Source: Minisyncoccota bacterium
GTDB lineage: Bacteria; Patescibacteriota; Minisyncoccia; Phycocordibacterales; CSBR16-193
DNA length: 34,670 bases
Assembly: GCA_046542915.1 (NCBI GenBank)
Contig: JBKHAI010000001.1
Span: forward strand, 1 to 34,670
Direction of reading: 5' to 3'
In this document: positions 3,171 to 31,341 of the stretch, one piece after another
How positions within the stretch are numbered: the first letter of the stretch is position 1
Layout of the letters: each line of letters begins with the position of its first letter
Notes under the pieces: model-generated
Seen by the model: the letters and a program-made list of their open reading frames with translations, nothing else
Database searches by the model: none
What the model was told of the DNA's origin: nothing
Program-made: the position numbers and the translations under genes

Positions 3171-3491
3171 CTAGTTATTATCTAACCCTCTCTTTATCTC
3201 CTCAATGTGTTCTTTCATCTCTTTTTTGAAATCGGAGACCACTTCCTCCAAGATCTCGTCATAATTGGGAAGTTTTTCCCTTAAAAAGTTCTCTGTTCTC
3301 TCGGCGTCCTCTTGTTCCCTCACCTTTTCAAACTCATCACGCTCTTCTTCGGAGAGCTCTTCCAAGACACGAAGAGTTATCTTCTTTAACAGAGTCTCGG
3401 TCATCGCCTGAAGAATTCGTGACTGTGCTTCTTCCGGCAGGTTTTTAAGATCAAACTCTTCTAAGAGATCGTTTTTTTGTTGTTCTTCCAT
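3171..3491 (-). CDS. Small acidic helical protein, copy A (partner of the giant membrane protein)
   Basis: 106-aa ORF, rich in E/D/K, with no Trp or Cys and no hydrophobic segment. It lies 33 bp downstream of the 805-aa gene. The first 97 codons are identical to the ORF at 7502..7822 apart from one synonymous SNP. It may belong to a Patescibacteria DUF family, which I cannot verify. Confidence 0.7.
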   Translation of the reverse strand: MEEQQKNDLLEEFDLKNLPEEAQSRILQAMTETLLKKITLRVLEELSEEERDEFEKVREQEDAERTENFLREKLPNYDEILEEVVSDFKKEMKEHIEEIKRGLDNN

Positions 3492-3504
3492 AGTAAATAA
3501 ATTA
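3199..3504. repeat. Direct repeat R1, copy A (306 bp, 1 mismatch versus 7530..7835)
   Basis: Base-by-base comparison at offset 4331. The only difference is g at 3471 versus a at 7802. Identity breaks at 3505/7836 and at about 3198/7529. The block covers 5' codons 1-97 of the small gene plus 13 bp upstream. Confidence 0.9.
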
Positions 3505-3524
3505 ATTAATTATAGATCAAAATT

Positions 3525-5942
3525 TTATTTGGCAAGTTCGTTGAGTTTTTCTTCTTCAAAAATATTTCCGTGATCTTCTTTCAATAAAGCGATTTTTTCC
3601 TGCAATCTGTTCTTTACCCAATCGTATTCTTTACTACCCAGCTTATCTTTGTCTTCCATTTCCCTCAATACTTGCTCGTGAACCTTTATGTCCCCCAGAG
3701 AGCTTTGAATTTCACCCTCTTTTTCCAGATAACGAGCAGGATCTTCATTGACAGCTTCCAGATCAATAAATTTATTCGGATCAAAGTGCTTTAAGTTGCC
3801 TTTATAATGCATATCGCTCACGTTGCCTTCGGTATCATATTCAAAACCGAATTCTTCAAACTCAAAACCGCTTCCTTCTTTTCGGACAAACTCTTCATCA
3901 ACGGGGTCTTTCTCAACACCGCTTTGCTCTGATGGGTCCGGTTCAGAAGTTTCCCCCGACTCAGGAATATCTTGGTGTTTTAAAGGATCGGTTTCTTCTT
4001 CAGCTTCTTCTATTGGAGAGAACTTAGTTTCCGCAGAACTTTCTTTTACCATCTGTTCCTCGGCAATTCCTTTTTCATATAAAATGTTATCAACTTTTTC
4101 CGATGTTAGTCTTTCTCCGGGGTTCTCTTTGACCCACTCCTCTATTATTTCATTGTTTCTAACGATACTCTCCATAGCTTCTTGACTGAGATCGTTGGAA
4201 GATTCAAGCATACTTCCGATCAGTCCGTCTTTTGCCAAAGGTGAAAAATCTATTTTCTGTCCGGCTTGTACCATATCAATGCTATCAACTCCTTCCATTC
4301 CGAAATTAGACGGGTCTTCTGCGATCTTGTCCTTTATTTGATCTATTAAATGGGTCTTTTGAGCTTCGTTAAGATCCTCAAACTTATCCCCGAGATTATC
4401 TTTCAGGAAAGATTCGGTGGTACTCCAAACCGACTCGCCGGGTTTGATCTCAACACCAAATTCGATCCCGGAACTGCCGGCCGTCGCCATCTCCGGGTTC
4501 TTTATCCATTCCGGTTGCTCATCAAACTCTTGGACATCAAAACGATGTTCTTCAAACTGAGACTCATTAACGACTCCCTCACCAGAAACTCCGGCTTGAG
4601 AAGTATCTTGTGGCCGGGGAATATCCTGGTGATTTATAGGTTCATCTTCTTCAGTCTCTTCTATTGGAGAAAACTCCGTAGATTCCGGTTCGGATCCCGC
4701 TGTGGCCAAAACATTGCCTTCATAAGCGTCTGAAGAACCAGGGATGGAGTCATTTTTGTTCTCAGGATGAGACTCCGTAGGAACTTCACCGGGGTCAAAC
4801 AGACTGGATATTCCATCTATCGCTTTACTGACGGCCCCGGACCCCACCAAAACTCCGGCGGTACCGGCCAAGATATAACGCCTATATCTTTCACCTTTCT
4901 TTCGGCCTTCCAGTTCAAAGAGTTTGTTATCAAGTTCGGCGTTTCCGGAATTAAGTTTTTCTTCAAGACCTTTAGCAAAAAGTTCTGACACTTCTTTTTC
5001 CGTCTTTTTTTCCTGACTTTTCTTTATCAATCCTTCCAGACCGACCGCGGTAGCGGCACCACTTAACACTCTCTGAGCTCGGGACCCGGCTATGGCACCG
5101 GTTGCCAAAGCGGCACCGGCAGCACCGCCTAAGGCGCCGGCTCCGGCCCCCAGTCCTAAAAGACCGGCGGAAATACCCAGTTTATACCTTAACGGCAGAC
5201 CCCGATACCAGTTGGCTACTTTTTTACCGGTCTCTTTAGCTTTTTCTTTTAAAGAATCCGGTTTTTCGTTTAAAGCAGCTTCCAGTTTGGCTTCGTGGAG
5301 GTTGTTGGCTTCCAGGGTCAGGGTTTCTGTCATTATCCTTTCTATTTCCTTATCTCTATCCTCCTTTGAAAGTGACGGGTCTAGAGACTCTATTCGCTCT
5401 TTTCTTCTGTTTTTCAGAGCTTCAATATATTCTTGCTTTTTTTGAACATATTCTTGACTAGGACTTTCTTTGTTAACCTGATCAAGGTCCATTTTTGCGA
5501 ATTCTTTTCTTTTTTCTTTAAGTATCTCTTCCGAACTTCTCTCCTCTTCCTGAGATTCGCCCGGGGTTTCCTGAACTACCTCTTCTGACCCTTTTTCTTT
5601 TTCAGTCTTCTCATCACTCTCTTTGCCTTCAGTCTTCTTTTTTTTCTTCCTCATTTCTTTGTAATTATAAACGGCGTCTTCAAGTTCATTCAGTCTTTTC
5701 TGTTTTTCTTCAGGCAAAAATTTTCCTTTTCCTTGGGCAAACCATTCTTTTTTCAAGTTATCGAGCTCTTCTTGGTCCTTCTTATTCTTTTCTCTTTTTT
5801 CCACATCCTCTTCCATTTCCTTTCTAACCTCTTCCATATACTCTTGTGTGTCATCGTCTCTACCACGATAAGCGGTTTCGGCGTGGATCTGAGGGTCTTG
5901 TTTTTCCTCGTTGGGATTATTTACGGGTGGTTTTTCACTCAT
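3525..5942 (-). CDS. Giant acidic membrane-anchored protein, paralog A (charged N-terminus, glycine-zipper TM core, LysM-like module, C-terminal F-rich module)
   Basis: 805-aa ORF. The N-terminal ~200 aa are K/E-rich. The core WYRGLPLRYKLGISAGLLGLGAGAGALGGAAGAALATGAIAG…YILAGTAGVLVGSGAVS is hydrophobic and Gly/Ala-rich. A very acidic C-terminal half follows. 167 aa are identical to the 1040-aa paralog. Confidence 0.75.
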   Translation of the reverse strand: MSEKPPVNNPNEEKQDPQIHAETAYRGRDDDTQEYMEEVRKEMEEDVEKREKNKKDQEELDNLKKEWFAQGKGKFLPEEKQKRLNELEDAVYNYKEMRKKKKKTEGKESDEKTEKEKGSEEVVQETPGESQEEERSSEEILKEKRKEFAKMDLDQVNKESPSQEYVQKKQEYIEALKNRRKERIESLDPSLSKEDRDKEIERIMTETLTLEANNLHEAKLEAALNEKPDSLKEKAKETGKKVANWYRGLPLRYKLGISAGLLGLGAGAGALGGAAGAALATGAIAGSRAQRVLSGAATAVGLEGLIKKSQEKKTEKEVSELFAKGLEEKLNSGNAELDNKLFELEGRKKGERYRRYILAGTAGVLVGSGAVSKAIDGISSLFDPGEVPTESHPENKNDSIPGSSDAYEGNVLATAGSEPESTEFSPIEETEEDEPINHQDIPRPQDTSQAGVSGEGVVNESQFEEHRFDVQEFDEQPEWIKNPEMATAGSSGIEFGVEIKPGESVWSTTESFLKDNLGDKFEDLNEAQKTHLIDQIKDKIAEDPSNFGMEGVDSIDMVQAGQKIDFSPLAKDGLIGSMLESSNDLSQEAMESIVRNNEIIEEWVKENPGERLTSEKVDNILYEKGIAEEQMVKESSAETKFSPIEEAEEETDPLKHQDIPESGETSEPDPSEQSGVEKDPVDEEFVRKEGSGFEFEEFGFEYDTEGNVSDMHYKGNLKHFDPNKFIDLEAVNEDPARYLEKEGEIQSSLGDIKVHEQVLREMEDKDKLGSKEYDWVKNRLQEKIALLKEDHGNIFEEEKLNELAK
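4826..5328. repeat. Direct repeat R2, copy A (503 bp, apparently 100% identical to 10021..10523)
   Basis: Aligned by eye at offset 5195 with no mismatch seen. Flanks diverge immediately (4825 t versus 10020 c; 5329 g versus 10524 t). The block encodes the identical 167-aa TM core. Confidence 0.9.
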
Positions 5943-6016
5943 ATTAAAAGCAGTTTAATACATTGGTAATTTAAATACACTATATCAAAAAAAATAAAAA
6001 AAATACTAGAGATCGA

Positions 6017-6583
6017 TCACTTTTGGTAAATTTGTTTGAGTTCTTTTTTGCTATCTTCATAACGAGGTATTGCTTCAGCGACCAGAGACCAAAAATCTTT
6101 TGAATGGTTCAGATGCTTTAAGTGGCAAAGCTCGTGAACTATAAGATAATCCTGAAGTTCTTCTTTCAAAAAAACTATCTTGTAATTGAAATTCAAGTTC
6201 TTTTTGGAAGAGCAACTCCCCCAACGACTCTTTTGGTTGCGTATTGATATTCTGTTGAAGTTGAAACCATAAAACTCATTCCAGTAGGAGACCTTCTTCT
6301 CTACCAGTTTTCTGGCTTTTTCTTTATGTTCAAGATAATGCTCCGGATTCCGAACTTCTATGTCGGGATCTGTATTCTTGGTCCTTTGCGAGAGTTTCTT
6401 TCTAACCCAATCCATCTTTTCATTTAAAAAAGAGATCGCTCTCTCTTCCGTCACATACATTGGCCGAGTTACTAGAACATCTCCGTTGGGCGATATGGTT
6501 ATCCGAAGGTATTTAGAGCGCCGATGCCGACGAAAGAAAACCTTTATATCACCCTTTTCATCTCTTAAAAACAGCTCCTTCAT
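6017..6583 (-). CDS. YgjP-like / DUF45 (M48-WLM type) metal-dependent hydrolase
   Basis: 188-aa ORF with the C-terminal signature LIVHELCHLKHLNHSKDFW (HExxH…H…FW) characteristic of the DUF45/YgjP family. It starts 4 bp after the upstream nuclease gene. Confidence 0.7.
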   Translation of the reverse strand: MKELFLRDEKGDIKVFFRRHRRSKYLRITISPNGDVLVTRPMYVTEERAISFLNEKMDWVRKKLSQRTKNTDPDIEVRNPEHYLEHKEKARKLVEKKVSYWNEFYGFNFNRISIRNQKSRWGSCSSKKNLNFNYKIVFLKEELQDYLIVHELCHLKHLNHSKDFWSLVAEAIPRYEDSKKELKQIYQK

Positions 6584-6587
6584 TGTC

Positions 6588-7439
6588 TTAATGGATCATA
6601 TAAAGGTCTTGTTTGTACTCTCCGACTCCAACATATTCGGCCTCTCCGTTCAGGATCTTTTCATAGGGTTTACAGGCAAAACATCCTCCGCGGGGACATT
6701 TAAATTCATTTTCTTCTCTGGCCTTTTTAACCTCTCGCGCCACTTTCAATACGTCCTCTTTACTCTTTTGCGGATCGGGGAGTTCAATCTCTCTGGGGGC
6801 ATCCTCTGAATCTACATACCAATAATATGCACCGCTTATCGGTCTTTTTTGAAGCGCTTTAAGTAGCAGAAAATAAATAGGGAGTTGTAAGGAACCCTCT
6901 TTTTCTTCGTTCTTGCCGGTCTTAAAATCAAGAACCCGGATGCTGTCATCCTCTTCCCTGTACTCCAACCAGTCTATCTTACCGCAAAGAATTATGTTCT
7001 CCTCTTCTGAGAGATAGAAGTTGGGCAACATTCCGCCGTCTTTTAATTTTACGGTTTTGTTGGAAAGCGGTCCGGGGTTTTTCATTACCCTTTCTATCAT
7101 CTCTTTCCCTCTTTCTTTCATTTCTTCTTCCTCCTTCTTGTCCGTAAACCCTCCTTTCTTGCCGGAGACCTTACCCCAGGCATCCTCATAATGCTCTAAG
7201 AGTGGTTGCTCCATTCGCTCCTCCGCTTTAAATCTTATCAGTCCTTCCAAAACTTCATGAACGGCTTGCCCTAGTGAAAGCGCCGGATTGACGATGTTCA
7301 TTTTTCGGCCGGTTTTGGGGTCTTTATAAACATTATGAAGATAATAAAGCCGAGGGCACTTCAAGAAATCCCCCATAGAAGAATGCGAGACCCAAACAGC
7401 CGAGTATTTGTCTTTGTTTTTTTCCATAAAGATCCACAA
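6588..7439 (-). CDS. PD-(D/E)XK nuclease, RecB/AddB/Cas4-like with putative Fe-S cysteines
   Basis: Motifs seen: GQAVHEVLE, GKIDWLEY, VLDFKTGK (D…D/ExK) and LQLPIYFLL (QxxxY). There is one N-terminal Cys (FLKCPRLYY) and a C-terminal CPRGGCFAC cluster. The track start is a TTG; the ATG at 7427..7425 (MEKNKDK…) is the more likely start. Confidence 0.7.
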   Translation of the reverse strand: MWIFMEKNKDKYSAVWVSHSSMGDFLKCPRLYYLHNVYKDPKTGRKMNIVNPALSLGQAVHEVLEGLIRFKAEERMEQPLLEHYEDAWGKVSGKKGGFTDKKEEEEMKERGKEMIERVMKNPGPLSNKTVKLKDGGMLPNFYLSEEENIILCGKIDWLEYREEDDSIRVLDFKTGKNEEKEGSLQLPIYFLLLKALQKRPISGAYYWYVDSEDAPREIELPDPQKSKEDVLKVAREVKKAREENEFKCPRGGCFACKPYEKILNGEAEYVGVGEYKQDLYMIH

Positions 7440-7501
7440 TTTTAAGCAAGGTCAAAAGAAATTCTGACTTAAGCTACTTTGATCTCATTTAACAACTTTG
7501 A

Positions 7502-7822
7502 TCAGTTTTCTTCAAGCCCTTTCTTGATATCCTCAATGTGTTCTTTCATCTCTTTTTTGAAATCGGAGACCACTTCCTCCAAGATCTCGTCATAATTGGG
7601 AAGTTTTTCCCTTAAAAAGTTCTCTGTTCTCTCGGCGTCCTCTTGTTCCCTCACCTTTTCAAACTCATCACGCTCTTCTTCGGAGAGCTCTTCCAAGACA
7701 CGAAGAGTTATCTTCTTTAACAGAGTCTCGGTCATCGCCTGAAGAATTCGTGACTGTGCTTCTTCCGGCAGGTTTTTAAGATCAAACTCTTCTAAGAGAT
7801 CATTTTTTTGTTGTTCTTCCAT
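7502..7822 (-). CDS. Small acidic helical protein, copy B
   Basis: 106-aa ORF. It is identical to copy A except for the last ~9 residues (…HIEDIKKGLEEN versus …HIEEIKRGLDNN). It lies 21 bp downstream of the 1040-aa gene. Confidence 0.7.
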   Translation of the reverse strand: MEEQQKNDLLEEFDLKNLPEEAQSRILQAMTETLLKKITLRVLEELSEEERDEFEKVREQEDAERTENFLREKLPNYDEILEEVVSDFKKEMKEHIEDIKKGLEEN

Positions 7823-7835
7823 AGTAAATAAATTA
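7530..7835. repeat. Direct repeat R1, copy B
   Basis: See 3199..3504. Confidence 0.9.
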
Positions 7836-7843
7836 GGTTATGA

Positions 7844-10800
7844 TTAATTTTTTATAAATGATGCCAAGGTTTTTTTAACCTCTTGTAGTGAATCTTTGTC
7901 CAACCTTTTCTCCTCCACATTTAGCTCCTCTGAGCCTGAGCCGGCATTTATTTTGCCGTCCAAAGAAAGATCGATCCTAAACTCTTTAGTTTCACCTTCG
8001 GATACTCCCTTTTCTATGGTTATTGAAACCCCACCTTCATCTTTTCTTTCTATTTCCAAATTATCTTTGCTCACCTTACTGTCATTTAAGGAGTCCTCTC
8101 CCAAAAAATCCTTGAGTGTTCTTTCCGGTTTATCCCCGGGCATAGCGTCATCATTCCAGTTCTCAAAATAAAGATCGGCTAGAGCTTTCTTTGTTCCACC
8201 CTCAAGCTCCGTGGAATCAATAACACCGAGTAGATGCTCCACCGTTTCCTCGTTGCCTTCAGAAATACCGTATCTTTCCATTATTTCCTTAGTTTTTGTG
8301 CCTTCTAAAACACCTTCTTCCGTCGTTGCCTCCCCCGAAATTATTTCTTCCACTTTATCAGATGTTAAAAGCTCGGAAGGGTTTTCTCTGACCCACTCGG
8401 CTATCTTTTGATTATTTTCAATGATCCTGTCAATGTCTCCGTTACTAAGATTACTTGCCGACTCAAACATTCTGGTGATCGCTTCTTCTTCCTTCATTAT
8501 TGTAGAGAGGTCAATTCTCTGCCCCGATTGGACAATGTCTATATTATCTACTCCTTCCATTCCGAAACGATCGGGGTCTTCGGCGATCTTGTCTTTTATA
8601 GCATCCAGCAAGTAAGTCTTTTGAGCCTCATTAAAATTATCGAACCCTTCAAAGTGACTTCCGATCTTTTCCTCGACAGCTTTCCAGACCGAACCACTTT
8701 CTTTAACTTCCGCTACATAGGTCTCGGTTGGATCTTCAAATTGAATTTTGGTATCTGTTTCTTTTTCCGGTTCTAATTTTTCAAAAGTCTCCGTATCCGC
8801 CTCTTGGGGCACCATCTCCGGTGCCGGTTCGGACTTTACTTTTTCTTGCTCTTTTAAGATATCTTCCGGTGGCTTTGGAACCGGTGGAGCTTCCGGTTCC
8901 TTTGGTTCAGGTTCGGAAATTGACGGCTCCGGTTCAGTTTCAGTGAAGACCTGTGGCTCCGGCGCTTTCTCGGAAGTTTCAACTTCTTCTCTGACAAGCT
9001 CCATCACGTCACGCGACGAAGATAACATCCTTTCCATAACTTCTCCGTTCGCCAAAACCGTTGAAAGATCAAGTTTTTGCCCCGGTTGGACAATATCTAT
9101 GTCGTCCACCCCCTCCATTCCGAACTGTTCCGGATCTTCAGCTATCCTTTCAAGCACCTGAGCCGTTAAGTACTCCTTTTGAATTTTAGTTAGACCGTCA
9201 AAATACCCCAACTCGTTTAGTTTGGCTTCTGTAACATCCCAGACTGAATCCCCGGCTTCTATCTGAGTTACAAATTCCTCGTTATAAGATGGAGTCTCTT
9301 CCACGGTCGTATCATCAGGAGCGGGTGGCTCATCAGGATCAAGGTCTTGTTTTGGGTCTTCGTTTTGAAGATCGTCCGAAGGATCAGGAACTTCTTCCGG
9401 TTGAGTTTCTTCTTTTTCTGCGGATAATTCCTCTTCACTTGCAGCTTGTGGTATTTCCCGAGGTTCCGGTTCGGCAATTTCCACCTCCGACTTTTCTTCA
9501 ACCGTCAGGTCATTCTTCAGTTCATCTATTTTTAAGATGTTTTCATACTTTTCAATCAAAGAATTCTTACCCTCCTCCAAACGGTCTTCCAACCATTGAT
9601 ATTCCGCCCCCTCACTCAACCCCTTCTCCTGCACCCTCTCAAGCGCCTGTTGATATATCTTTAATTCCTTAATAGAATCTTCCAGTTTCACTTTCTCGCT
9701 CAAACCAAAATCATCCGCCTCCTCGGCAACAGAAAAATCAATGAACTTGGCGGCGTCAAAATTCATAAAATTGCCGGCAAAATCCAGATCCGTGACGTTA
9801 CCCTCATCGTCTTTGACAAAATTGAGTCTTGTAAAATCAAAGGAGCTCTCTTTCTCCGCTTCTAAAGATCCGGTTTCTTCAAGCTCCTCCGCCGAGCCGC
9901 TTGGAGAGTCTCCTTCGGGAACACCGGCATAAGCTTCGGATGAACCAAAGGCATCTTTCATTTTACCAAGGATCTCTTCCTGGTTTCCGCCGAAAAGATC
10001 CGCCATACTTGAAAAGACCCTACTGACGGCCCCGGACCCCACCAAAACTCCGGCGGTACCGGCCAAGATATAACGCCTATATCTTTCACCTTTCTTTCGG
10101 CCTTCCAGTTCAAAGAGTTTGTTATCAAGTTCGGCGTTTCCGGAATTAAGTTTTTCTTCAAGACCTTTAGCAAAAAGTTCTGACACTTCTTTTTCCGTCT
10201 TTTTTTCCTGACTTTTCTTTATCAATCCTTCCAGACCGACCGCGGTAGCGGCACCACTTAACACTCTCTGAGCTCGGGACCCGGCTATGGCACCGGTTGC
10301 CAAAGCGGCACCGGCAGCACCGCCTAAGGCGCCGGCTCCGGCCCCCAGTCCTAAAAGACCGGCGGAAATACCCAGTTTATACCTTAACGGCAGACCCCGA
10401 TACCAGTTGGCTACTTTTTTACCGGTCTCTTTAGCTTTTTCTTTTAAAGAATCCGGTTTTTCGTTTAAAGCAGCTTCCAGTTTGGCTTCGTGGAGGTTGT
10501 TGGCTTCCAGGGTCAGGGTTTCTTGAAAGATCTCTTTTTTACGGGCTTCTTTTTGTTCATCGGAGATATCTTGTTCGTCCAGTTCTTTTAATTTAGTATT
10601 TCGATATTCCTTCAGAGCTTCCAGGTACTCTTCTTTCTTTCTGAGATACTCCGGGTTTTCATTCTTTTTATAGTCTTCTTTGGTTGCGTTGATCTGATCA
10701 CCTTGACCTTTCCAAAAATTAACTTTGTTTCTTTTTTTGACCCATAATTCCGCCTCTCTATCAACTTCCGCGAATTTCTGGCGTTTTTGATATAAAAGAA

Positions 10801-10966
10801 CGTCCGGAGTAATTTCCTTACCTTCATTATCTTCTTTTATTTGTTCCGGGTCTTTTTCGTACCCTTGCACTTCGGAGAGATCTTCGCTATGTCCTTTCAA
10901 ATCGGGTGGAGTTTCTTTTTTTATCCCATCGATTGGTTCTACGTGGTTTTTTTCATTGAGGTCCAT
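7844..10966 (-). CDS. Giant acidic membrane-anchored protein, paralog B (same TM core, F-rich module, two LysM-like modules, extra C-terminal domain)
   Basis: 1040-aa ORF that starts 7 bp after the ATPase stop codon. Its 167-aa core is identical to paralog A, while the remaining modules are rearranged and diverged. It contains Pro/Glu-rich linkers (EPEPSISEPEPKEPEAPPVPKPPE). Confidence 0.75.
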   Translation of the reverse strand: MDLNEKNHVEPIDGIKKETPPDLKGHSEDLSEVQGYEKDPEQIKEDNEGKEITPDVLLYQKRQKFAEVDREAELWVKKRNKVNFWKGQGDQINATKEDYKKNENPEYLRKKEEYLEALKEYRNTKLKELDEQDISDEQKEARKKEIFQETLTLEANNLHEAKLEAALNEKPDSLKEKAKETGKKVANWYRGLPLRYKLGISAGLLGLGAGAGALGGAAGAALATGAIAGSRAQRVLSGAATAVGLEGLIKKSQEKKTEKEVSELFAKGLEEKLNSGNAELDNKLFELEGRKKGERYRRYILAGTAGVLVGSGAVSRVFSSMADLFGGNQEEILGKMKDAFGSSEAYAGVPEGDSPSGSAEELEETGSLEAEKESSFDFTRLNFVKDDEGNVTDLDFAGNFMNFDAAKFIDFSVAEEADDFGLSEKVKLEDSIKELKIYQQALERVQEKGLSEGAEYQWLEDRLEEGKNSLIEKYENILKIDELKNDLTVEEKSEVEIAEPEPREIPQAASEEELSAEKEETQPEEVPDPSDDLQNEDPKQDLDPDEPPAPDDTTVEETPSYNEEFVTQIEAGDSVWDVTEAKLNELGYFDGLTKIQKEYLTAQVLERIAEDPEQFGMEGVDDIDIVQPGQKLDLSTVLANGEVMERMLSSSRDVMELVREEVETSEKAPEPQVFTETEPEPSISEPEPKEPEAPPVPKPPEDILKEQEKVKSEPAPEMVPQEADTETFEKLEPEKETDTKIQFEDPTETYVAEVKESGSVWKAVEEKIGSHFEGFDNFNEAQKTYLLDAIKDKIAEDPDRFGMEGVDNIDIVQSGQRIDLSTIMKEEEAITRMFESASNLSNGDIDRIIENNQKIAEWVRENPSELLTSDKVEEIISGEATTEEGVLEGTKTKEIMERYGISEGNEETVEHLLGVIDSTELEGGTKKALADLYFENWNDDAMPGDKPERTLKDFLGEDSLNDSKVSKDNLEIERKDEGGVSITIEKGVSEGETKEFRIDLSLDGKINAGSGSEELNVEEKRLDKDSLQEVKKTLASFIKN
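10021..10523. repeat. Direct repeat R2, copy B
   Basis: See 4826..5328. Confidence 0.9.
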
Positions 10967-10973
10967 AATATAC

Positions 10974-13724
10974 TTATATTACTTCTTTATATTTCATTTG
11001 AATGTCTTCTTCAACGTCTTCCCGAGGGCGTCCGTATCTTATATAAGACAGTTGTTTAAGGTCCTCCACTTGACTTTGATCTCCCTCTTGAGGAGGAAGA
11101 GGGTTGAAATTAAAGGGTCTACTAGGATAACCGTTAACCAAGATCTTTCCGACGGCATGGTAGTTCTTTAAGTTCATAATATTATTTGTGGAGAACTCGG
11201 GCTCAAACTGAGAAGAAAGAAACTCGGCGTCTTCATATCCCACTCTAAACGAAACCATTGATCCAACGTTACCGAATATGGAGTCACGGATCCCGTCATC
11301 GAGCTGAGAAATGAACTGATGGAACACGCTCAAACAAAGCTTGTACTTTCTGGCCTCCGATAAAATAGTGTTAATGGAATCGGTAGTAACGTTCTGAAAC
11401 TCATCAATATATAAATAAAATGGTGGCAAATCTTTAGAAACCTCACGAGAAAGAGCTGCCATCAATATTTTACCAACCAAGATAAGACCCAACAAGTGAG
11501 AATTAATATCTCCTAGTTTTCCTTTAGAGAGGTTAACCAGTAAGATCTTTCGATTATCCATAACATCCTTAAAATCAAAAGATGATCTTTCCTGAGCTAT
11601 TATCGGTCTCATAATGTCATTGGCAGTAAAAACATCAAATTTACTGGTTATATAGGGAACAATATTCTCAAGCTGTGACTCACCTCCAGCCTTTGTGGCT
11701 ATTTCGTTCCAAAATTGGTTCACTACCGGGTTTTTGCATTTAGATAATTTGTGATCTCTGAATTCCTTGTTAGACAAAACCTTGGATATATCCAAAAGGG
11801 TACTGTTCGTATCCGGATCCTCAAGAGTGAGCATTGTCGCGTTCCTGAAGTACTGTTCAAATATTGGCCCCATCGCTTCGGGATTACTTGAATAAAGTTT
11901 CTGAAAGATACTAAAGAGTTCATTAACAACAAAAGTTTTTTGCTCGGGACTTTCTTTATCATACTCAAGCATATTCAAAGCCATTGATCTTTTTGTATAA
12001 CCGGGCTCAAAATATATCACGTCATCAAACCTTTCCTTCGGGATCCTTTGCAGTACATCATCAATATCAGATCCATGAGGGTCTATCATACAAACTCCGT
12101 CACCATTTTGAATATCCTGAATGATCATGTTCTTTAGAAAGTTGGTTTTACCAGTACCGGTCTGCCCTATTGTGTAAAGGTGTCTAACTCTGTCTTCTTT
12201 GGACATATAAACTTCGGTCTTTTGATTCCTGTGCTCATTTATGCCTAAAAGTATGCCGTTTCTATGCATATCAGGCGGAGGAGGCGCCGTTTTATGAGTG
12301 GTCTGTTTGAACTCCGGAGACGAGACAGTGCTTAAAGAAGTGTGCATCATAGAGGTCAGTTCTTTAATGTTCAACGGTAAGGCGTTCTTTCTGTTGAAGC
12401 GCCGGAATATGAAATCTTTGGATAGGCGGTCAAGTTTCTTACCTTTCAATCTCTTAAACTCAAGCTTGTTGCCGGTTGAGTTCTCAAACTGATTGAACGA
12501 GGCCTCTATTTCGTCAAGCATTAGATCACATCTTTCCTTGCTGTCAGCGGAAGAGATCACCCTGATATTAGTGGGAATGATCATGGCGGACATCTTTTTC
12601 TTTACTTCCTCTATCACTACTTGGTCAGGTTGGCGCGGAGACTCGTCAACTTCTTTTTTATTATTACCGGAAATTTCTTTGAATATACCTTTTAAGACAT
12701 TAAGCGTATCCCAGGAAATATTCTCTGCCGCTTCTTTTAAGGAATAACCCTTTTCCAGTTGCGTTAATATCTGTCGGTTGCGATTTGAGTGTTCTCCGGT
12801 CCCGGGATTAAAAACGAACTGAAGAGCAACCCCTTCCCTTTTTTCCGCTATCTTGGAAAAGGCGTTTAAGATCACATTCATAGGATCATGATCAAATTCC
12901 TCGTAACTTTTTAAAGGCAATGAAGGGTCTTTTTTAAACTCAGCAATTGATCCGGCCACAACTCCTTTTTCTACAAAGATGTTGTAGTCATTCTTTCTTT
13001 CTATTATTTGGGCCTCCGGAAAAACAGAAAGGAGCTGCTTTTCAAAGACCACTGTCTTCTCATCCGGAATAGCGGCATACATAACAATGTTACTACTTTC
13101 TTCAGAAGTGGCTATTTCAAAAGTGAAAAAACCCCCTTCCTTGGCACTAACCCCCGCAACGGAATGCATTCCGGCGTAAAACTGCTCCATCGAGGAAACT
13201 ATCTCTTTAAAGGTCTTTTGTTTATCTTCATCAGAATCTTTTTTCGGCAAAGATATCTCAAAAAGGGTCATTTTAAAAGAACGCCAGAGCTCCGTCTTTT
13301 CTTTTAATCCCTTGATAGAATGGCCGGTCTTTAACCACTGAACCAAAACTCGGTGAAGATCATCTTCAAGATGATAATCCTGCATCTTTTCAACCAAAGA
13401 GAGGGTGTTATGAACTCCCTTCTCTTCCATTGTTTCCAAGAGTTTGCTTATTTTAATGTCGTGATCTTCCGGTTCTATATCCAAAAGACGGGAAAGTTTA
13501 TCGGCTTCCGTCATCTCGGCATTTTCTGAGAGAACCTCGGAAGCCGGTTTTTTTTGGTATTCCTTGACCTTTTCTACACTGGCGTCTTCTTTTTCTTTTT
13601 TTTCCGCGGCTTCTCCCAATTCTTCTTCTTTTTTCGCCAACTCTTGACGCAGGAAATCAAGTTCTTCCTGGGGAGTTTCAAAGCTTTTTTTAGTTTCTCG
13701 GTCTCCTAACGACTCTTGATTCAT
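10974..13724 (-). CDS. TraD/TrwB/VirD4-like (FtsK-HerA superfamily) P-loop ATPase with an uncharacterised ~480-aa N-terminal region and no TM segments
   Basis: 916-aa ORF. Walker A is HLYTIGQTGTGKTNF (about nt 12141..12167) followed by CMIDPHGS. Walker B is FYLYIDEFQNV (about nt 11391..11425). The C-terminal GNVGSMVSFRVG…AEFL resembles coupling-protein C-terminal domains. I saw no hydrophobic helix in the N-terminal half. Confidence 0.65.
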   Translation of the reverse strand: MNQESLGDRETKKSFETPQEELDFLRQELAKKEEELGEAAEKKEKEDASVEKVKEYQKKPASEVLSENAEMTEADKLSRLLDIEPEDHDIKISKLLETMEEKGVHNTLSLVEKMQDYHLEDDLHRVLVQWLKTGHSIKGLKEKTELWRSFKMTLFEISLPKKDSDEDKQKTFKEIVSSMEQFYAGMHSVAGVSAKEGGFFTFEIATSEESSNIVMYAAIPDEKTVVFEKQLLSVFPEAQIIERKNDYNIFVEKGVVAGSIAEFKKDPSLPLKSYEEFDHDPMNVILNAFSKIAEKREGVALQFVFNPGTGEHSNRNRQILTQLEKGYSLKEAAENISWDTLNVLKGIFKEISGNNKKEVDESPRQPDQVVIEEVKKKMSAMIIPTNIRVISSADSKERCDLMLDEIEASFNQFENSTGNKLEFKRLKGKKLDRLSKDFIFRRFNRKNALPLNIKELTSMMHTSLSTVSSPEFKQTTHKTAPPPPDMHRNGILLGINEHRNQKTEVYMSKEDRVRHLYTIGQTGTGKTNFLKNMIIQDIQNGDGVCMIDPHGSDIDDVLQRIPKERFDDVIYFEPGYTKRSMALNMLEYDKESPEQKTFVVNELFSIFQKLYSSNPEAMGPIFEQYFRNATMLTLEDPDTNSTLLDISKVLSNKEFRDHKLSKCKNPVVNQFWNEIATKAGGESQLENIVPYITSKFDVFTANDIMRPIIAQERSSFDFKDVMDNRKILLVNLSKGKLGDINSHLLGLILVGKILMAALSREVSKDLPPFYLYIDEFQNVTTDSINTILSEARKYKLCLSVFHQFISQLDDGIRDSIFGNVGSMVSFRVGYEDAEFLSSQFEPEFSTNNIMNLKNYHAVGKILVNGYPSRPFNFNPLPPQEGDQSQVEDLKQLSYIRYGRPREDVEEDIQMKYKEVI

Positions 13725-13732
13725 TAGTTATC

Positions 13733-13760
13733 ATTATACAGCATAAAATTAAGCAGTAAA
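13733..13760 (-). promoter_or_regulatory. Candidate sigma70-type promoter for the ATPase-led locus
   Basis: On the minus strand: TTTACT (13760..13755), a 16-nt spacer, then TATAAT (13738..13733). Only 8 nt separate the -10 element from the ATG at 13724, which would imply a leaderless or nearly leaderless transcript. AT-rich DNA produces such hexamers by chance. Confidence 0.35.
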
Positions 13761-13787
13761 TTAACTACTTGGTCCGGAAATTGCTTC

Positions 13788-14838: not shown

Positions 14839-15213
14839 CTACTCGGAAGTTTCTGTATCAGCAACCGCCCGACATCCTTCTATGGTCTTATCTCCCGTTT
14901 TAAGAGTAGCTTCTTCACCTTCTATTTTTAAAACTACGAGACCGTCACCGCTTTCGTAACTAGCACTGGAGGTTGAGACCACACCTTCAAGGAGTAAGGT
15001 TCGGCCACTGGGTAGAGTAAACTCAACCATTGAACCATCGGAATGAAAAAGAGTATCTAGTACAACTCCGTCATCGCATTCATATTTATCGGCCATAACA
15101 AGCTCTTCCTCTTTCTCCTTGGATGGAGCTTCCCTGTCCCACTGCAAAACCAGAATTAGGACCGAAGCCAATAAAAGTACCACTCCTAAAATAATAAGTA
15201 TGTACCTATTCAT
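14839..15213 (-). CDS. Secreted or anchored MliC-like (C-type lysozyme inhibitor fold) protein
   Basis: 124 aa. It has an N-terminal hydrophobic signal or anchor (ILIILGVVLLLASVLILVL). The pattern YECDDG…VEFTLPSGRTLLLEGVVSTSSASYESGDGLVVLKIEGEEATLKTGDKTIEGC then matches the MliC layout (YxCdxG … SaSGarY … KGdEAtl … C). Confidence 0.5.
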   Translation of the reverse strand: MNRYILIILGVVLLLASVLILVLQWDREAPSKEKEEELVMADKYECDDGVVLDTLFHSDGSMVEFTLPSGRTLLLEGVVSTSSASYESGDGLVVLKIEGEEATLKTGDKTIEGCRAVADTETSE

Positions 15214-15286
15214 ATTCTTTTATTAGTACAGCTTAATATTATCACGCTTTCTTTAGCTGACAAAGGAAAAGTGTTGGTATTGGAAC

Positions 15287-16081
15287 TTAAAAAGTACCAA
15301 CGGTGATAAATCTTTTTTTCCAGCCCTTCTTGAATTGCTCCTCGGTTATTCTAAGACCTCCCAGACCTTCCGCCGGATCATTATAGTAAAGAAGGTTCTC
15401 AGCTTCTCCGCTGATGACCACCAAATGAGGTATCTCACTATCGGGGTCAAAACCATGAAAAACAGAAGCGATAACGGGTCCGTCATTTAAAAAAGATAGA
15501 AACTGGTGATAAGCATCATTCATAGCCAAATGAGAAAGATCATGAGTCTCGGCCTTCAGGTCATGTTCTTCCGCCATTAAGGCCAGTCCGTTGTGAGTCC
15601 AGCCAAGTTCCGTTAAGTAATGACCGGAGGAAAGACCTTCTTCTAGCAGTAATTGCGGCGAGGTTTCTCCGGGTTTATACATCTCTATCAACATCGCCAA
15701 ACTGGCAACTCCGCAGGCCCTACCTCTCCATTTAACCCAGTTTATATCACTTGACTGAGAAAAGAACGGTACCTTGGGCACAGTGGCAGGGAGCGTTTCT
15801 TTAAGGTCTTTAGAAGCATTTTTCACTGAAGTATTATTATTTTCTCCAAGTTCGCGCTCATCTCTCTCTTTTACCGACACAGAGGCGGCCAGACTCCGAG
15901 AGTAGTCCGGCTTTAGTGGGATGCCAACGTCTTGATAAAAAAATTCGGTCGTAACCACATCGGGGGTCTTTTTATCCATATGGTTACCACTCAGAAAAGA
16001 AAAACCGGATAAAGCTCCGGCACCACTTACAAAGACCCCGAAAAACAAACCGAAAAGCGAGATCTTTAACATTGACAGCAT
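15287..16081 (-). CDS. Peptidase C39-like (papain-fold, Peptidase_C39_2-type) secreted protein
   Basis: 264 aa with an N-terminal signal or TM segment. The candidate catalytic Cys context is WRGRACGVASLAMLIEMY. A downstream His (IPHLVVISG) and NDP follow, as in C39-like domains. Confidence 0.55.
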   Translation of the reverse strand: MLSMLKISLFGLFFGVFVSGAGALSGFSFLSGNHMDKKTPDVVTTEFFYQDVGIPLKPDYSRSLAASVSVKERDERELGENNNTSVKNASKDLKETLPATVPKVPFFSQSSDINWVKWRGRACGVASLAMLIEMYKPGETSPQLLLEEGLSSGHYLTELGWTHNGLALMAEEHDLKAETHDLSHLAMNDAYHQFLSFLNDGPVIASVFHGFDPDSEIPHLVVISGEAENLLYYNDPAEGLGGLRITEEQFKKGWKKRFITVGTF

Positions 16082-16116
16082 TGAGCTTTTATACCATAAA
16101 CAAAGAGATCCTGCAA

Positions 16117-17148
16117 TTAATCTCTAACTATGATCTCAGTCCCCAGCTCCGCCCAGTGATAAAGCTCCTCGGCCTCCTCCGGGCGCATATTGACACATCC
16201 GTTGGAATAAGGGCTGCCAAAAGATTCATGCCAATAAGCTCCATGAACAACGGCCCCTTGCTCCGTAAAATAAAGATTCCACGGCACTCCCGGCAGGTCC
16301 CAGTATTGAAGACTGATACCGGGAATCGGTCCTTGCATATAACGGCTTGGTGTTTTTTTAAAAACAACAAACTCCCCTCTCGGAGTCGGAGTTAAATTCA
16401 ATCCCGTAGAAATATCATACTCCATAACTAACTCATCATTTTCGTAAGCATAGAGTTTTTGTCCACCCCGTTCAACAACTATCAGCTTCATATTACTCTT
16501 CTCTTTTGGATCTAGAGAAGAGATGATCTTGCTTCCTTCTTCAAAAAAGACCTCTACGTGATCAGCTACCACATACCAGTCCCCGGACGACCTATCCGGG
16601 TAACGAAGCCATTCATTGAATTCTATCTTATACCAAAGATGTTCTTGTCTTTCTATGCTTTTTTCAACTTTCAAGATCTGCCCGTTGCGAAGCTTTCCAA
16701 CTATCGGATGATCGGTGCCCGGTCCGGCTCGGACATTGAGACACTCGCCGTTAAAATATGGTCCACAACTACCTGTTACTTTTATGTATTGAAATAGATC
16801 TTTATCAGTAGAAGTAGCCCCAAGGTCTTCTTCGTCTTCCTTGTCCTCCTCGTCAGTTACTACGACATCTTTTTCAGGAACGTCCTCCAGGTCTTGATAC
16901 CATTTTTGATTAAGATCATTATCTTCTGCCAAATCCGTCAATTTTTTATTACCATCCGTCTCATTCTTTTCTTCATCTTGCTTGACCAAATGGCTTTCTT
17001 CCTCGATATTCACTCCCGCCTCAGCTCCTTCTGACACGGATGAGGTATTGAAAATAGAACCCCAATAGAAAAAGAACCAAAAGAAAGTAGCGAGAACCAC
17101 CAAAGATAAAAGTGATATTATAAAAAGGTTTTCGCGGTTTCTGATCAT
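16117..17148 (-). CDS. L,D-transpeptidase (YkuD domain) with SH3b-like domain and N-terminal membrane anchor
   Basis: The YkuD active-site signature VVHGAYWHESFGSPYSNGCVNMRPEEAEELY is present. An SH3-like stretch (LNVRAGPGTDHPIVGKLRNGQILKV) and an N-terminal TM segment (FIISLLSLVVLATFFWFFFYW) are followed by an acidic linker. Confidence 0.85.
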   Translation of the reverse strand: MIRNRENLFIISLLSLVVLATFFWFFFYWGSIFNTSSVSEGAEAGVNIEEESHLVKQDEEKNETDGNKKLTDLAEDNDLNQKWYQDLEDVPEKDVVVTDEEDKEDEEDLGATSTDKDLFQYIKVTGSCGPYFNGECLNVRAGPGTDHPIVGKLRNGQILKVEKSIERQEHLWYKIEFNEWLRYPDRSSGDWYVVADHVEVFFEEGSKIISSLDPKEKSNMKLIVVERGGQKLYAYENDELVMEYDISTGLNLTPTPRGEFVVFKKTPSRYMQGPIPGISLQYWDLPGVPWNLYFTEQGAVVHGAYWHESFGSPYSNGCVNMRPEEAEELYHWAELGTEIIVRD

Positions 17149-27445: not shown

Positions 27446-27976
27446 ATGTCAGGACATAATAAATGGTCAAAAGTTAAACACAAAAAAGCGGCCACAGACG
27501 CTCAAAAAAGCAAACAGTTCTCAAAACTGTCAAAGTTAATAACTATGGAGGTAAAAAAAGCCGGAGGAGACACCGAAAACTCCGGAGTAAGAAAAGCAAT
27601 AGAACAAGCCAAAGCGGTGAATATGCCTAATGACAACATTGAAAAAGCTATAAAAAGGGCCAAGAACTCCGATGAAAAAGATATGGAGAAAGTGACCTAT
27701 GAGGCCTATGGACCGGAAGGAGTTGCTATGATCATAGAAGGATTAACAGACAACAGAAATAGAACCGCCGCGGAGGTTAAAAGTATTCTTTCAAAACACG
27801 GAATTGAGCTTGCGGTCCCGGGTTCCGCCACTTGGGCGTTTAATAAAAATGAAGGAAGTTACGAAACAAAAACCCCGGTTAAGATCACGGGATCCTCTAA
27901 AGAGAAGTTATCTTCTATAATAGAAAGTCTGGAAGAAAGTGAGGATATCCAAGAAATATATACAAATGCCGAATAA
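27446..27976 (+). CDS. yebC: YebC/PmpR-family protein, compact 176-aa form
   Basis: MSGHNKWSKVKHKKAATDAQKSKQFSKL… and YEAYGPEGVAMIIEGLTDNRNRTAAEV match YebC. The C-terminus (…IESLEESEDIQEIYTNAE) also matches. About 60 aa of the usual middle subdomain are missing. Confidence 0.85.
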   Translation: MSGHNKWSKVKHKKAATDAQKSKQFSKLSKLITMEVKKAGGDTENSGVRKAIEQAKAVNMPNDNIEKAIKRAKNSDEKDMEKVTYEAYGPEGVAMIIEGLTDNRNRTAAEVKSILSKHGIELAVPGSATWAFNKNEGSYETKTPVKITGSSKEKLSSIIESLEESEDIQEIYTNAE

Positions 27977-28463
27977 TTTAAAAGTTCTGGGAATAGATCC
28001 CGGTTATGAACGCCTAGGAATGGCGGTTATAGAAAAAAAGGAGACCGGCAAAGAGTTTTTGGTCTTTTCTGATTGTATTAAAACATCCAATAAAGAGGAA
28101 CACTGGAATAGATTATATAAAATAAATCTGGCTCTGGAAGAATGTATCAAAAGAGACCAACCGGAAGTGTTGGCCATTGAAACACTTTTTTTTAATACCA
28201 ACCAAAAAACGGCCATAAAAGTAGCCGAGGTTAGAGGAGTGATCATGTCCACTGCGGCTAAATACGGAATGAAGGTTAAAGAATTCAATCCCCTTCAAGT
28301 AAAACAAGCTATCACCGGTTACGGTAGAAGTGAAAAAAGACAGGTCATCGCAACTTTACCTTATATAATAAAAATAGATAAAAAAATAAAATATGATGAT
28401 GAATTTGATGCGATCGCCGTGGCTTTAGCGTGTTCGGCAACACTAAGTAGCCTTAGAATTTGA
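27966..28463 (+). CDS. ruvC: Crossover junction endodeoxyribonuclease RuvC
   Basis: KVLGIDPGYERLGMAVIE, LAIETLFFNTN and DEFDAIAVAL provide the catalytic acidic residues. I prefer the ATG at 27966 (MPNNLKVLG…) over the track start at 27939, which overlaps yebC. Confidence 0.9.
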   Translation: MPNNLKVLGIDPGYERLGMAVIEKKETGKEFLVFSDCIKTSNKEEHWNRLYKINLALEECIKRDQPEVLAIETLFFNTNQKTAIKVAEVRGVIMSTAAKYGMKVKEFNPLQVKQAITGYGRSEKRQVIATLPYIIKIDKKIKYDDEFDAIAVALACSATLSSLRI

Positions 28464-28499
28464 AAAGTTGCATTTTTTAAAAAATTTGATAAAAATATA

Positions 28500-28706
28500 T
28501 TGTTAATAGAATTAAAAAGTTCTTTAAAAAATATGAGGGATAATTTGGAAAATTTTTATTCAAACTTTGAAGACATTGATGATGATATTCCAGAAGACGA
28601 AGAAGATGAGATGGAGAGTATTGTAGAAAGTTCTTTTTTGGAAGCAAATAACCAAACGTTTGATGAAGACGATATTCCGGAAATACCGGATCTTGAAGAA
28701 GAATAG
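28500..28706 (+). CDS. Hyper-acidic micro-protein (57-68 aa), hypothetical
   Basis: The track start is TTG; an in-frame ATG lies at 28533. The sequence is …NFEDIDDDIPEDEEDEMESIVESS…FDEDDIPEIPDLEEE. A clean terminator hairpin follows, which favours it being a real transcription unit. Confidence 0.4.
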   Translation: MLIELKSSLKNMRDNLENFYSNFEDIDDDIPEDEEDEMESIVESSFLEANNQTFDEDDIPEIPDLEEE

Positions 28707-28727
28707 ATCAGTACTTATCGTTTTAAG

Positions 28728-28752
28728 ACCTCCAAGAAAATTGGAGGTTTTA
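28728..28752 (+). terminator. Rho-independent terminator-like hairpin
   Basis: ACCTCCAA (28728..28735), loop gaaaa, TTGGAGGT (28741..28748), followed by TTTAAT. Confidence 0.55.
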
Positions 28753-28842
28753 ATATAATAAGCATCGCCTATTGACCAAATAACTGAATGATCTTATTAT
28801 TAACGTCTCAAGCAAGCTCTTCTATTAATTTTCATAATAAAA

Positions 28843-31080: not shown

Positions 31081-31081
31081 T

Positions 31082-31339
31082 CTATAAAATATTTACAATA
31101 TCAGCTGAACCACCTTTTTCTTTAAATATTTTTAAAATATTTTCTTTTCTAATAAGAATTTCGTTTTTTATAACTGAGTTACAGTTAATAAAAATGGTGT
31201 CGTTTTTGATCGAAAAATTTTCCGGAGGGATCACGATGTTTAACTCTTCTTTTACGGTCTCACTTAAAAGATCTTGAGTGGCTTTTCGTGAATTAAGAGC
31301 ATTTTTAAAACGACCAAGTATTTCCGATACTTTTTCCAT
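31082..31339 (-). CDS. DUF721 / DciA-like small protein downstream of dnaN
   Basis: 85 aa. Its position directly after dnaN and its overall pattern (…IVIPPENFSIKNDTIFINCNSVIKNEILIRKENILKIF…) resemble DUF721 proteins. The assignment is made by eye only. Confidence 0.45.
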   Translation of the reverse strand: MEKVSEILGRFKNALNSRKATQDLLSETVKEELNIVIPPENFSIKNDTIFINCNSVIKNEILIRKENILKIFKEKGGSADIVNIL

Positions 31340-31341
31340 TT

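Follow-up and report, generated by a model that had tools for sequence, protein, structure and literature searches.

An orphan VirD4/TraD-type ATPase of Patescibacteria is linked to giant membrane proteins and small DUF5663 proteins

Results and discussion

The window analysed here is a stretch of 34,670 nucleotides of contig JBKHAI010000001.1 (assembly GCA_046542915.1) from a Minisyncoccota bacterium of the Patescibacteriota, and its positions 3,171 to 13,760 carry seven genes on the minus strand (Table 1). Read 5' to 3' on that strand, they encode a soluble VirD4/TraD-type ATPase, a giant membrane protein followed by a 106-aa DUF5663 protein (cassette 1), a nuclease, a YgjP-like hydrolase, and a second giant followed by its own DUF5663 protein (cassette 2). 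A first-pass annotation, made from the sequence alone, had drawn up this order, and a check of the open reading frames (ORFs) finds all seven genes at the coordinates it gave, separated by gaps of 33, 74, 4, 62, 21 and 7 bp in order of rising coordinate. I describe the locus as a conserved, Patescibacteria-specific candidate envelope module around an orphan ATPase that resembles type IV coupling proteins (T4CPs) and is accompanied by neither a relaxase nor a VirB4 channel. The ATPase, the giants, the DUF5663 proteins and a helical protein of ~150 aa, which occurs free or fused to the motor, probably form one functional module. The reading that I favour, with a probability of roughly 0.4, is that the giants serve the motor as a membrane platform or conduit and are not its cargo.

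Table 1. Genes and sequence features of the locus (positions of the window)
Feature	Position	Strand	Evidence and remarks
DUF5663 protein, cassette 2, 106 aa	3171-3491	-	Pfam PF18908, 7.5e-12; protein 96% identical to the cassette 1 copy
Giant membrane protein, cassette 2, 805 aa	3525-5942	-	ORF
C-module of giant 2	4059-4460	-	AlphaFold2 pLDDT 63-85; beta-alpha-alpha-beta unit, then helical extension
Membrane core of giant 2	4826-5328	-	DNA 100% identical to 10021-10523
YgjP-like metal-dependent hydrolase, 188 aa	6017-6583	-	PF01863, E 2.5e-43; probably passenger
PD-(D/E)XK (Cas4-like) nuclease, 283 aa, TTG start	6588-7439	-	PDDEXK_1, 1.4e-22; probably passenger
DUF5663 protein, cassette 1, 106 aa	7502-7822	-	Pfam PF18908, 1.2e-11; net charge -17
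Giant membrane protein, cassette 1, 1040 aa	7844-10966	-	Charged helical N-terminus, Gly-zipper core, acidic C-terminus with two C-module copies
C-module copy 2, giant 1	8318-8719	-	GSVW...GQRIDLS plus NNQKIAEWVRENP...LTSDKV; LysM similarity weak
C-module copy 1, giant 1, shorter	8933-9274	-	
Membrane core of giant 1	10021-10523	-	DNA 100% identical to 4826-5328
VirD4/TraD-type ATPase, soluble, DUF8128 family, 916 aa	10974-13724	-	TraG-D_C, TrwB_AAD_bind
Walker B region LYIDEFQN	11391-11414	-	D774, E775, F776, Q777 and N778 invariant in 20-member ATPase alignment
Walker A GQTGTGKT	12144-12167	-	Invariant in 20-member ATPase alignment
Helical N-terminal module of ATPase, residues 1-150	13275-13724	-	Fused equivalent of the separate ~150-aa acidic protein
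Promoter-like site TTTACT-16-TATAAT	13733-13760 (read 13760->13733)	-	63-bp gap from Na/Ca-exchanger gene to ATPase gene

Sequence profiles identify the ATPase as a P-loop ATPase of the VirD4/TraD type. It matches the Pfam families TraG-D_C (26.5 bits, cut-off 22) and TrwB_AAD_bind (23.2 bits, cut-off 20.5) and, in both cases partially, the NCBIfam models SXT_TraD (1e-16) and CD1115-family VirD4-like (5e-11), while TrwB is its sole sequence match in the PDB; the identical sequence in NCBI is annotated as 'TraM recognition domain-containing protein'. The Walker A and Walker B motifs that had been read from the translation are both present. In the AlphaFold2 (AF2) model, with a mean predicted local distance difference test score (pLDDT) of 70, a check for the all-alpha domain finds, between Walker A and Walker B, six helices (residues 593-701). 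Foldseek aligns ~410-460 columns of the model to the 427-aa TrwBdeltaN70, in an alignment that comes without domain-level ranges, and the matches of the model include DotL, HerA, TrwB (TM-score on target 0.55-0.60) and Cagbeta. The best matches over the whole length are VirB4/TrwK (~900 aligned columns, E 3e-10), which suggests that the modelled ATPase shares with them a two-domain layout of an N-terminal alpha/beta domain and an ATPase domain, but the TM-score is only 0.28 and the sequence profiles favour TraD/VirD4. The ATPase has no Pfam match to CagE_TrbE_VirB and no VirB3, VirB6 or VirB8 neighbours. The absence of N-terminal transmembrane (TM) helices, also claimed earlier, is borne out, as no hydrophobic segment precedes residue 740 and hydrophobicity is confined to a buried helix at residues 740-758.

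At the N-terminus of the ATPase family lies DUF8128 (PF26449). Precomputed annotation gives it to the 99%-identical P0001, to each of the 120 homologues listed and to the ATPases of loci L001 and L113; the local Pfam scan did not report it on the window ATPase itself. All of the more than 1,162 homologues found by shared words carry PF26449/DUF8128. Outside the Patescibacteria, the nearest relatives are coupling ATPases of Gram-positive conjugative regions, such as a 913-aa 'DUF87 domain-containing protein' of the B. subtilis plasmid NRS6107_2 and a homologue on an Embleya plasmid. These T4CPs are of similar size (800-900 aa). They align with the window ATPase at 23-27% identity across ~70-80% of the length, including the entire Walker A/B domain and some of the N-terminal one, and by this homology the motor derives from conjugative coupling proteins. 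The B. subtilis homologue adjoins replication-relaxation, TcpE and VirB4-like genes and the Embleya homologue PrgI, VirB4-like, relaxase and NlpC/P60 genes, whereas the window has none of the relaxase, VirB4-like ATPase, PrgI/TcpE and wall hydrolase genes that adjoin the Gram-positive ones, and its ATPase, unlike theirs, lacks a TM anchor and carries a fused helical N-module. As the first-pass annotation had stated, relaxase, VirB4, VirB6 and integrase domains are absent from the window's ORFs of at least 100 aa; relaxase and VirB4-type genes are likewise absent from the gene tables of loci L001, L003 and L111-L113, and the neighbourhood survey described below does not find the ATPase family embedded in conjugative modules.

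Such orphans have been described before. A survey of 2,918 Patescibacteria genomes found 5,713 VirD4-like homologues, of which 148 lie near virB4, and its authors did not exclude an exaptation of these T4CP homologues for another function (Quinonero-Coronel et al. 2025, PMC12102498). In view of this survey, the ATPase by itself is an already known orphan; the two sets of genes are probably the same population, and the paper names no partners.

Relatives of the ATPase also turn up elsewhere. Its residues 150-909 match nearly the whole profile of phrog_5156 (function unknown) at 6e-75, it matches gp156 of Bacillus phage G and proteins of SPbeta-like phages at 22-24% identity, and the PADLOC model mad8 matches partially at 1.4e-14; relatives of the two-domain ATPase are therefore present in large phages and in candidate defence systems.

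The giants have cytoplasmic-type helices, a Gly/Ala-rich membrane core, a loop and a C-module of ~130 aa in common. In each, two hydrophobic Gly/Ala-rich regions flank a loop rich in K and R (K+R 0.25), and the net charge of the C-terminal region is -71 in one giant and -118 in the other. Because the core flanks and the loop are K/R-rich and the C-terminal regions strongly negative, an N-in/C-out topology, with a cytoplasmic N-terminus and an external C-terminus, would fit. The core has the consensus WYRxLPLRYKLxISAGL..G..AGA.GGATGAALATG...GRWFQR..GGAATAVGLE, followed by a K/E-rich loop and then RRYxLAGTAGVLVGSG, and the C-module reads GDSVWK...GQKIDFS...NNQ.I.EWVK.HPGE.LTSEKV. With the core profile, 483 representative clusters were found among 1.84 billion, 200 of them at 1e-10; member length is 400-1,475 aa, the core lying in mid-protein, and 36 columns of the 184-column core alignment are invariant, for the most part Gly, Ala and charged flanks. 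Towards both termini the sequences vary, and the membrane core is the most conserved part. The window giants have no match in Pfam, NCBIfam, PHROGs or PADLOC, 56 diverse members of the family match no Pfam family at 1e-3, and the identical proteins in NCBI are annotated as 'hypothetical protein'. The AF2 model of the giant (mean pLDDT 51) is confident only at the N-terminal helices and the C-module.

The Gly-zipper core, the K/R-rich loop and the acidic C-terminus had all been recognised in the first-pass annotation and stand, as does the fit of its topology with the charges; its LysM-like modules fare worse. Pfam gives no LysM match on the window giants at E<0.1 and none among the 56 family members at 1e-3, Foldseek finds no LysM fold on the giant model, and one of ten excised C-modules matches LysM, at 1.1e-4. 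A PDB profile search with the C-module halves yields only hints at E~1, to SafA and LytE. Membership of the C-module in LysM is rejected accordingly, and the likeness is a weak lead.

Both 106-aa proteins are acidic and helical, as had been noted, and are DUF5663 proteins by profile search, with scores of 45.4 and 46.1 bits (cut-off 23.7) over profile positions 1-83 of 84. A search for known families of small partners (WXG100 and type VII secretion system (T7SS) proteins, chaperones that serve type III secretion or the type IV secretion system (T4SS)) returned at E<0.1 only DUF5663 and sub-threshold DUFs; PHROGs gave nothing and PADLOC only JukA at 0.0022.

Among relatives with a long contig, L001 is the closest (ATPase 74% identical), and it retains the gene order in full: Na/Ca exchanger, ATPase, giant, DUF5663, PD-(D/E)XK nuclease, YgjP, giant, DUF5663 and CitMHS transporter. 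A survey centred on the ATPase covered the 80 closest species-level loci, with ATPases 49-56% identical to the window's. The commonest context of the soluble ATPase there is secY-adk-map-ATPase-ndk, and in L080, L037 and L015 a giant and/or DUF5663 gene is adjacent to the fused ATPase gene; an iterative hidden Markov model (HMM) for DUF5663 run across ATPase-centred loci finds only L001 and L080, to which phmmer adds L037 at 7e-4. A scan with the DUF5663 alignment gave 26 metagenome loci, with DUF5663 proteins 30-42% identical to the window's. Wherever the flank suffices, DUF5663 in these loci adjoins a giant on the same strand, and in most of them an ATPase gene lies within one or two genes. 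At least 12 distinct DUF5663-centred loci have, on one strand, genes for an acidic soluble protein, a giant, DUF5663, an acidic protein of 148-175 aa and an ATPase of 825-858 aa, and L113, which was reached via a giant homologue, has the same operon order with two DUF5663 copies. The loci of this split form, here called lineage 2, belong to Moranbacteria and other Parcubacteria, judging from the names on identical sequences.

Linkage of a giant or DUF5663 with the ATPase thus occurs in at least six ATPase branches that are 41-60% identical to each other in pairwise comparison. In the window the ATPase gene leads the group, in lineage 2, L037 and L080 it comes at the end, and in L015 it is convergent; because gene order and orientation differ between branches, the proximity has been kept through rearrangements. 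The three protein kinds are therefore linked in related genomes, as the first-pass annotation had proposed, and the functional coupling of ATPase, giants and DUF5663 is well supported.

The ATPases of the split form show how the remaining component is tied in. They are 41-46% identical to the window ATPase from residue 168 on, and one or two N-terminal TM helices replace the first ~165 residues. The acidic protein of 148-175 aa is always encoded just upstream of the TM-anchored ATPase, between DUF5663 and the motor. It ends in KI..LV.LA..KGV.HAV.VARHLEDNY.LDEFHDRLL, and residues 85-135 of the soluble ATPases read HD.K..ELL..L.EKGI.NTLS.VEKM.DPHLEDDFHRFLV. The free protein matches the N-terminus of fused ATPases by BLASTP (E 2e-4) and by profile-profile comparison of the N-module in hhalign (92.8% probability, E 3.9e-7), and the HMM of the free family matches residues ~10-135 of 57 fused ATPases as well as a standalone ORF in all 19 of the 19 lineage-2 loci. 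Since residues ~10-135 of the window ATPase and the ~150-aa protein are homologues, the soluble ATPase is, on this sequence evidence, a gene fusion in which the partner replaced the TM anchor. The comparison thus points to two forms of the system, a TM-anchored ATPase with a free helical partner and a soluble ATPase with a fused one. The fusion ties at least this ~150-aa member of the operon to the motor, and any action of the window ATPase at the membrane would require a membrane partner, as it has no TM anchor.

By eye, a similar short acidic motif stands near the N-terminus of DUF5663 (LLEEFDLKDLPED), of the 150-aa protein (LEPIEEKDLDLxKKF) and of the fused ATPase (FxTPEEELxFLR), and may be a shared linear docking motif.

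The two cassettes of the window are similar in a restricted way. The shared core of 167 aa, noted earlier, corresponds to 503 bp of identical DNA, and the DUF5663 genes with 13 bp upstream are 98.7% identical. At the protein level the cores are 93% identical (100% over 167 residues) and the DUF5663 proteins 96%, while the N-terminal regions of the giants are only ~31% identical. Between the L001 paralogues the corresponding values are 52% for the cores and 58% for DUF5663, and in a sister strain the core identity between cassettes is intermediate, at 74%. These identities indicate that the cassette duplication is older than the split from L001, and that recent gene conversion has homogenised exactly the core and DUF5663, together. 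The joint homogenisation is compatible with core and DUF5663 co-evolving as a contact pair.

Homology, conserved linkage, fusion and gene conversion are what the sequences show, while topology, physical contacts, direction of action and substrate are a matter of inference. The soluble ATPase, as a hexamer, would dock on the cytoplasmic helices and the K/R-rich loop of the giant's conserved core, with DUF5663 and the fused N-terminal module as adaptors; ATP hydrolysis would then move a substrate at the membrane, and the variable acidic ectodomains would touch the cell wall or the surface of a host. Four points favour a platform: what is invariant in the giants is their membrane core together with the cytoplasmic flanks, the giants resemble stable membrane proteins that need no special exporter, the module encodes no other channel, and the soluble ATPase no longer has an anchor of its own.

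The linkage of ATPase, giant and DUF5663 would also fit if the giants were clients of the ATPase for export, insertion or extraction, as the first-pass annotation had suggested, with DUF5663 as a dedicated chaperone or adaptor. Effector-chaperone pairs of T4SSs and T7SS substrates with small helical partners are parallels to such an arrangement. Each giant does have its own DUF5663 adjacent to it, the latter is small, helical and acidic, the ectodomains differ between paralogues as expected for displayed surface proteins, and a second pair of a large acidic protein and one of ~96 aa, described below, also occurs beside the ATPase. Yet the internal hydrophobic anchors of the giants, with their K/R flanks, are typical of stable proteins that Sec/YidC could insert, the conserved element is the membrane core and no terminal signal, the module encodes no export channel, and the giant is absent near most ATPase orthologues. 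I consider cargo giants rather unlikely.

The ATPase itself invites a housekeeping role. It is very conserved, with a mean column identity of 66% across 20 diverse members and at least 594 GTDB species genomes that carry the family, it usually ends the ribosomal-protein/secY-adk-map cluster beside ndk, and its relatives are coupling proteins that pump DNA. It could accordingly be a DNA translocase of the Paceibacteria, FtsK-like or for DNA uptake, with the giants as pole or septum scaffolds of the HubP/FimV kind that tether the motor in some lineages; the faint LysM likeness of the C-module halves would agree with this. However, FtsK_SpoIIIE scores 15.8 bits on the ATPase, for the P-loop only and far under the Pfam cut-off of 24, and the C-module is no LysM member, and I regard this explanation as unlikely.

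Several observations weigh against the platform that I prefer. A giant or DUF5663 lies within 10 kb of the ATPase in only 3 of the 80 surveyed loci, and as ~95% of these 80 soluble-ATPase orthologues are unlinked, the motor can work without a neighbouring giant gene. Conversely, giant-DUF5663 pairs occur without an ATPase within 8-10 kb in L099/L101, L111 and L112. The T4CP homologue of Southlakia epibionticum is non-essential by transposon sequencing (PMC12102498). The membrane core of the giant is predicted at very low confidence (pLDDT 25-45), and the giant model has no significant Foldseek match in the PDB (best E 0.6). The identical 503-bp repeat could also be an artefact of assembly, which is unlikely, as the exact sequence of each giant is found on two contigs.

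The unlinked loci and the solitary pairs would suit an explanation in which the genes are mere neighbours, because small and stable genomes pass on their synteny, and the cassettes a duplicated pair of surface-protein genes. This is improbable in the face of linkage in at least six branches at 60% ATPase identity or less, of an ATPase gene that is first, last or convergent across branches, and of a ~150-aa protein, encoded between DUF5663 and the TM-anchored ATPase, that became fused to the motor.

Known systems offer analogies to a motor with the giants as its putative platform. DotL of the Legionella Dot/Icm system with DotM, DotN, IcmS, IcmW and LvgA, and Cagbeta of H. pylori with CagZ, are VirD4-type motors with a membrane partner and small acidic or helical adaptors or regulators encoded nearby. 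The window module resembles these complexes by analogy, and DotL and Cagbeta are among the Foldseek matches of the ATPase, but no similarity in sequence or fold was detected between IcmS/W, CagZ or DotM and DUF5663, the 150-aa protein or the giants, and the Dot/Icm and Cag complexes feed a full T4SS channel. The giants are also like the HubP/FimV landmark proteins and TonB-like wall-spanning proteins in that a membrane anchor is combined with a module that may bind the wall and with a long region that is very acidic or rich in Pro/Glu, although no homology was detected, a Foldseek match to the TonB C-terminus (E 4.3) not being significant.

In the literature search, neither DUF5663 nor DUF8128 is mentioned, Wang et al. 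2023 do not discuss the coupling protein, and the giants, DUF5663 and the fused or free 150-aa protein were not found as partners of T4CPs. The ATPase was already known to be an orphan, and DUF5663 has its entry in Pfam; absent from the literature searched are the giant family, the association of four components, the fused and split forms, and the concerted evolution of the cassettes.

Surroundings of the locus

Other genes recur at these loci. In 8 of the 80 species loci (L018, L035, L040, L043, L046, L064, L069 and L083; for example L069:6679-8239) a different pair stands beside the soluble ATPase, an acidic soluble protein of ~415 aa directly followed by a helical protein of ~96 aa, and the small protein is also present at L044:9274-9564. 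The larger one has the N-terminal motif 'ALN.PGF..FL', and neither is in Pfam. That the 96-aa protein could be a relative of DUF5663 was ruled out, with an hhalign probability of 0.5%. Five lineage-2 loci carry, just upstream of the giant/DUF5663/ATPase operon, two divergent genes for polytopic PMT_2-type glycosyltransferases of ~520 and ~610 aa (L086:3189-6601 and the equivalent positions in L092, L093, L096 and L103); these enzymes might glycosylate the giant ectodomain. In one sub-branch of lineage 2, a convergent gene directly downstream of the TM-anchored ATPase encodes a conserved protein of 740-820 aa with two hydrophobic segments in mid-protein (L093:13951-16419, L085:4167-6422 and L103:13341-15572, all on the minus strand), which has no Pfam match and is not detected by the giant-core and C-module profiles.

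The two enzymes encoded between the cassettes are probably passengers, as they are kept with the module only in L001. Of their first-pass descriptions, 'Cas4-like' holds as far as a generic PD-(D/E)XK nuclease, while the cas4 model TIGR00372 scores 38.3 bits against a cut-off of 65 and the window has no cas genes; the YgjP-like gene has the identity given to it (PF01863) and falls outside the conserved set. A defence system made of ATPase, nuclease and YgjP was rejected, PADLOC giving only the partial mad8 match and generic Cas4-like ones, and nuclease and YgjP being unconserved outside L001. A phage or other mobile element was rejected as well, despite the matches of the ATPase to phrog_5156 and Bacillus phage proteins: the locus is chromosomal, near dnaA and dnaN, DUF5663 is absent from IMG/VR, and there are no integrase or phage genes.

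A single promoter had been proposed ahead of the ATPase gene. It is the best consensus match of the region, at 10 of 12 positions and as a consensus match only, but it carries little weight, because the scan of the region gives 24 such sites where 16 +/- 4 are expected. The Na/Ca-exchanger gene is directly upstream of the ATPase gene in L001 too, and transcription may therefore begin further up. None of the six intergenic gaps contains a terminator-like site on the minus strand, and no intergenic leader of the locus has a Shine-Dalgarno-like purine run. The same TAATTTATTTACT precedes both DUF5663 genes (3492-3504 and 7823-7835), and a similar TAATTTACT lies in the ATPase leader (13725-13787), overlapping the promoter-like site. 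The 74-bp gap before the second giant gene (5943-6016) is very T-rich (TTTTTTTTATTTTTTTT), followed by a TATAGT/TATTTAAAT-like sequence, and may hold an internal promoter for cassette 2.

The window is chromosomal, with a CitMHS transporter gene at one end, dnaN and dnaA at the other, and in its interior ruvABC, polA, murein genes, a gene for a PilB-type ATPase and one tRNA-Lys gene. The locus is preceded on its own strand by an envelope gene cluster just upstream (14839-17148), encoding an MliC-like lysozyme-inhibitor protein, a protein with a C39-type peptidase domain, and one with SH3 and YkuD L,D-transpeptidase domains. The ORF of the YebC/TACO1 family (27446-28463) has only 176 aa, with a partial match to the third domain and an overlap of 38 bp with the GTG-started ruvC ORF; it could be a truncated or frameshifted yebC, or the start of ruvC could be mis-set. 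The G+C content falls from ~0.42 to 0.31-0.34 across 28001-34000 (the end with PBP1, dnaN and dnaA), and the cumulative GC skew has its minimum at ~24-26 kb of the window.

Conclusion

Patescibacteria make up a large share of bacterial diversity and live attached to other microbes, and how they exchange material with their hosts is largely unknown. The locus gives orphan T4CPs concrete partners: a giant family of 483 clusters, DUF5663, and a helical adaptor that is free or fused. In its boldest form, which I consider unlikely, the platform would be a minimal translocation machine independent of a T4SS, in which the exapted ATPase sits, via DUF5663 and the N-terminal helical adaptor, on an oligomeric Gly-zipper pore of giants and moves DNA or protein across a single membrane to the host, with variable acidic ectodomains, which the adjacent PMT-type transferases may glycosylate, setting the contact with wall or host. 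If the module is such a machine for translocation or surface display, a conjugation motor would here be put to a new use, and the module would be a candidate determinant of host contact; if it is instead a housekeeping DNA pump with membrane tethers, it would fill a gap in chromosome handling by minimal cells.

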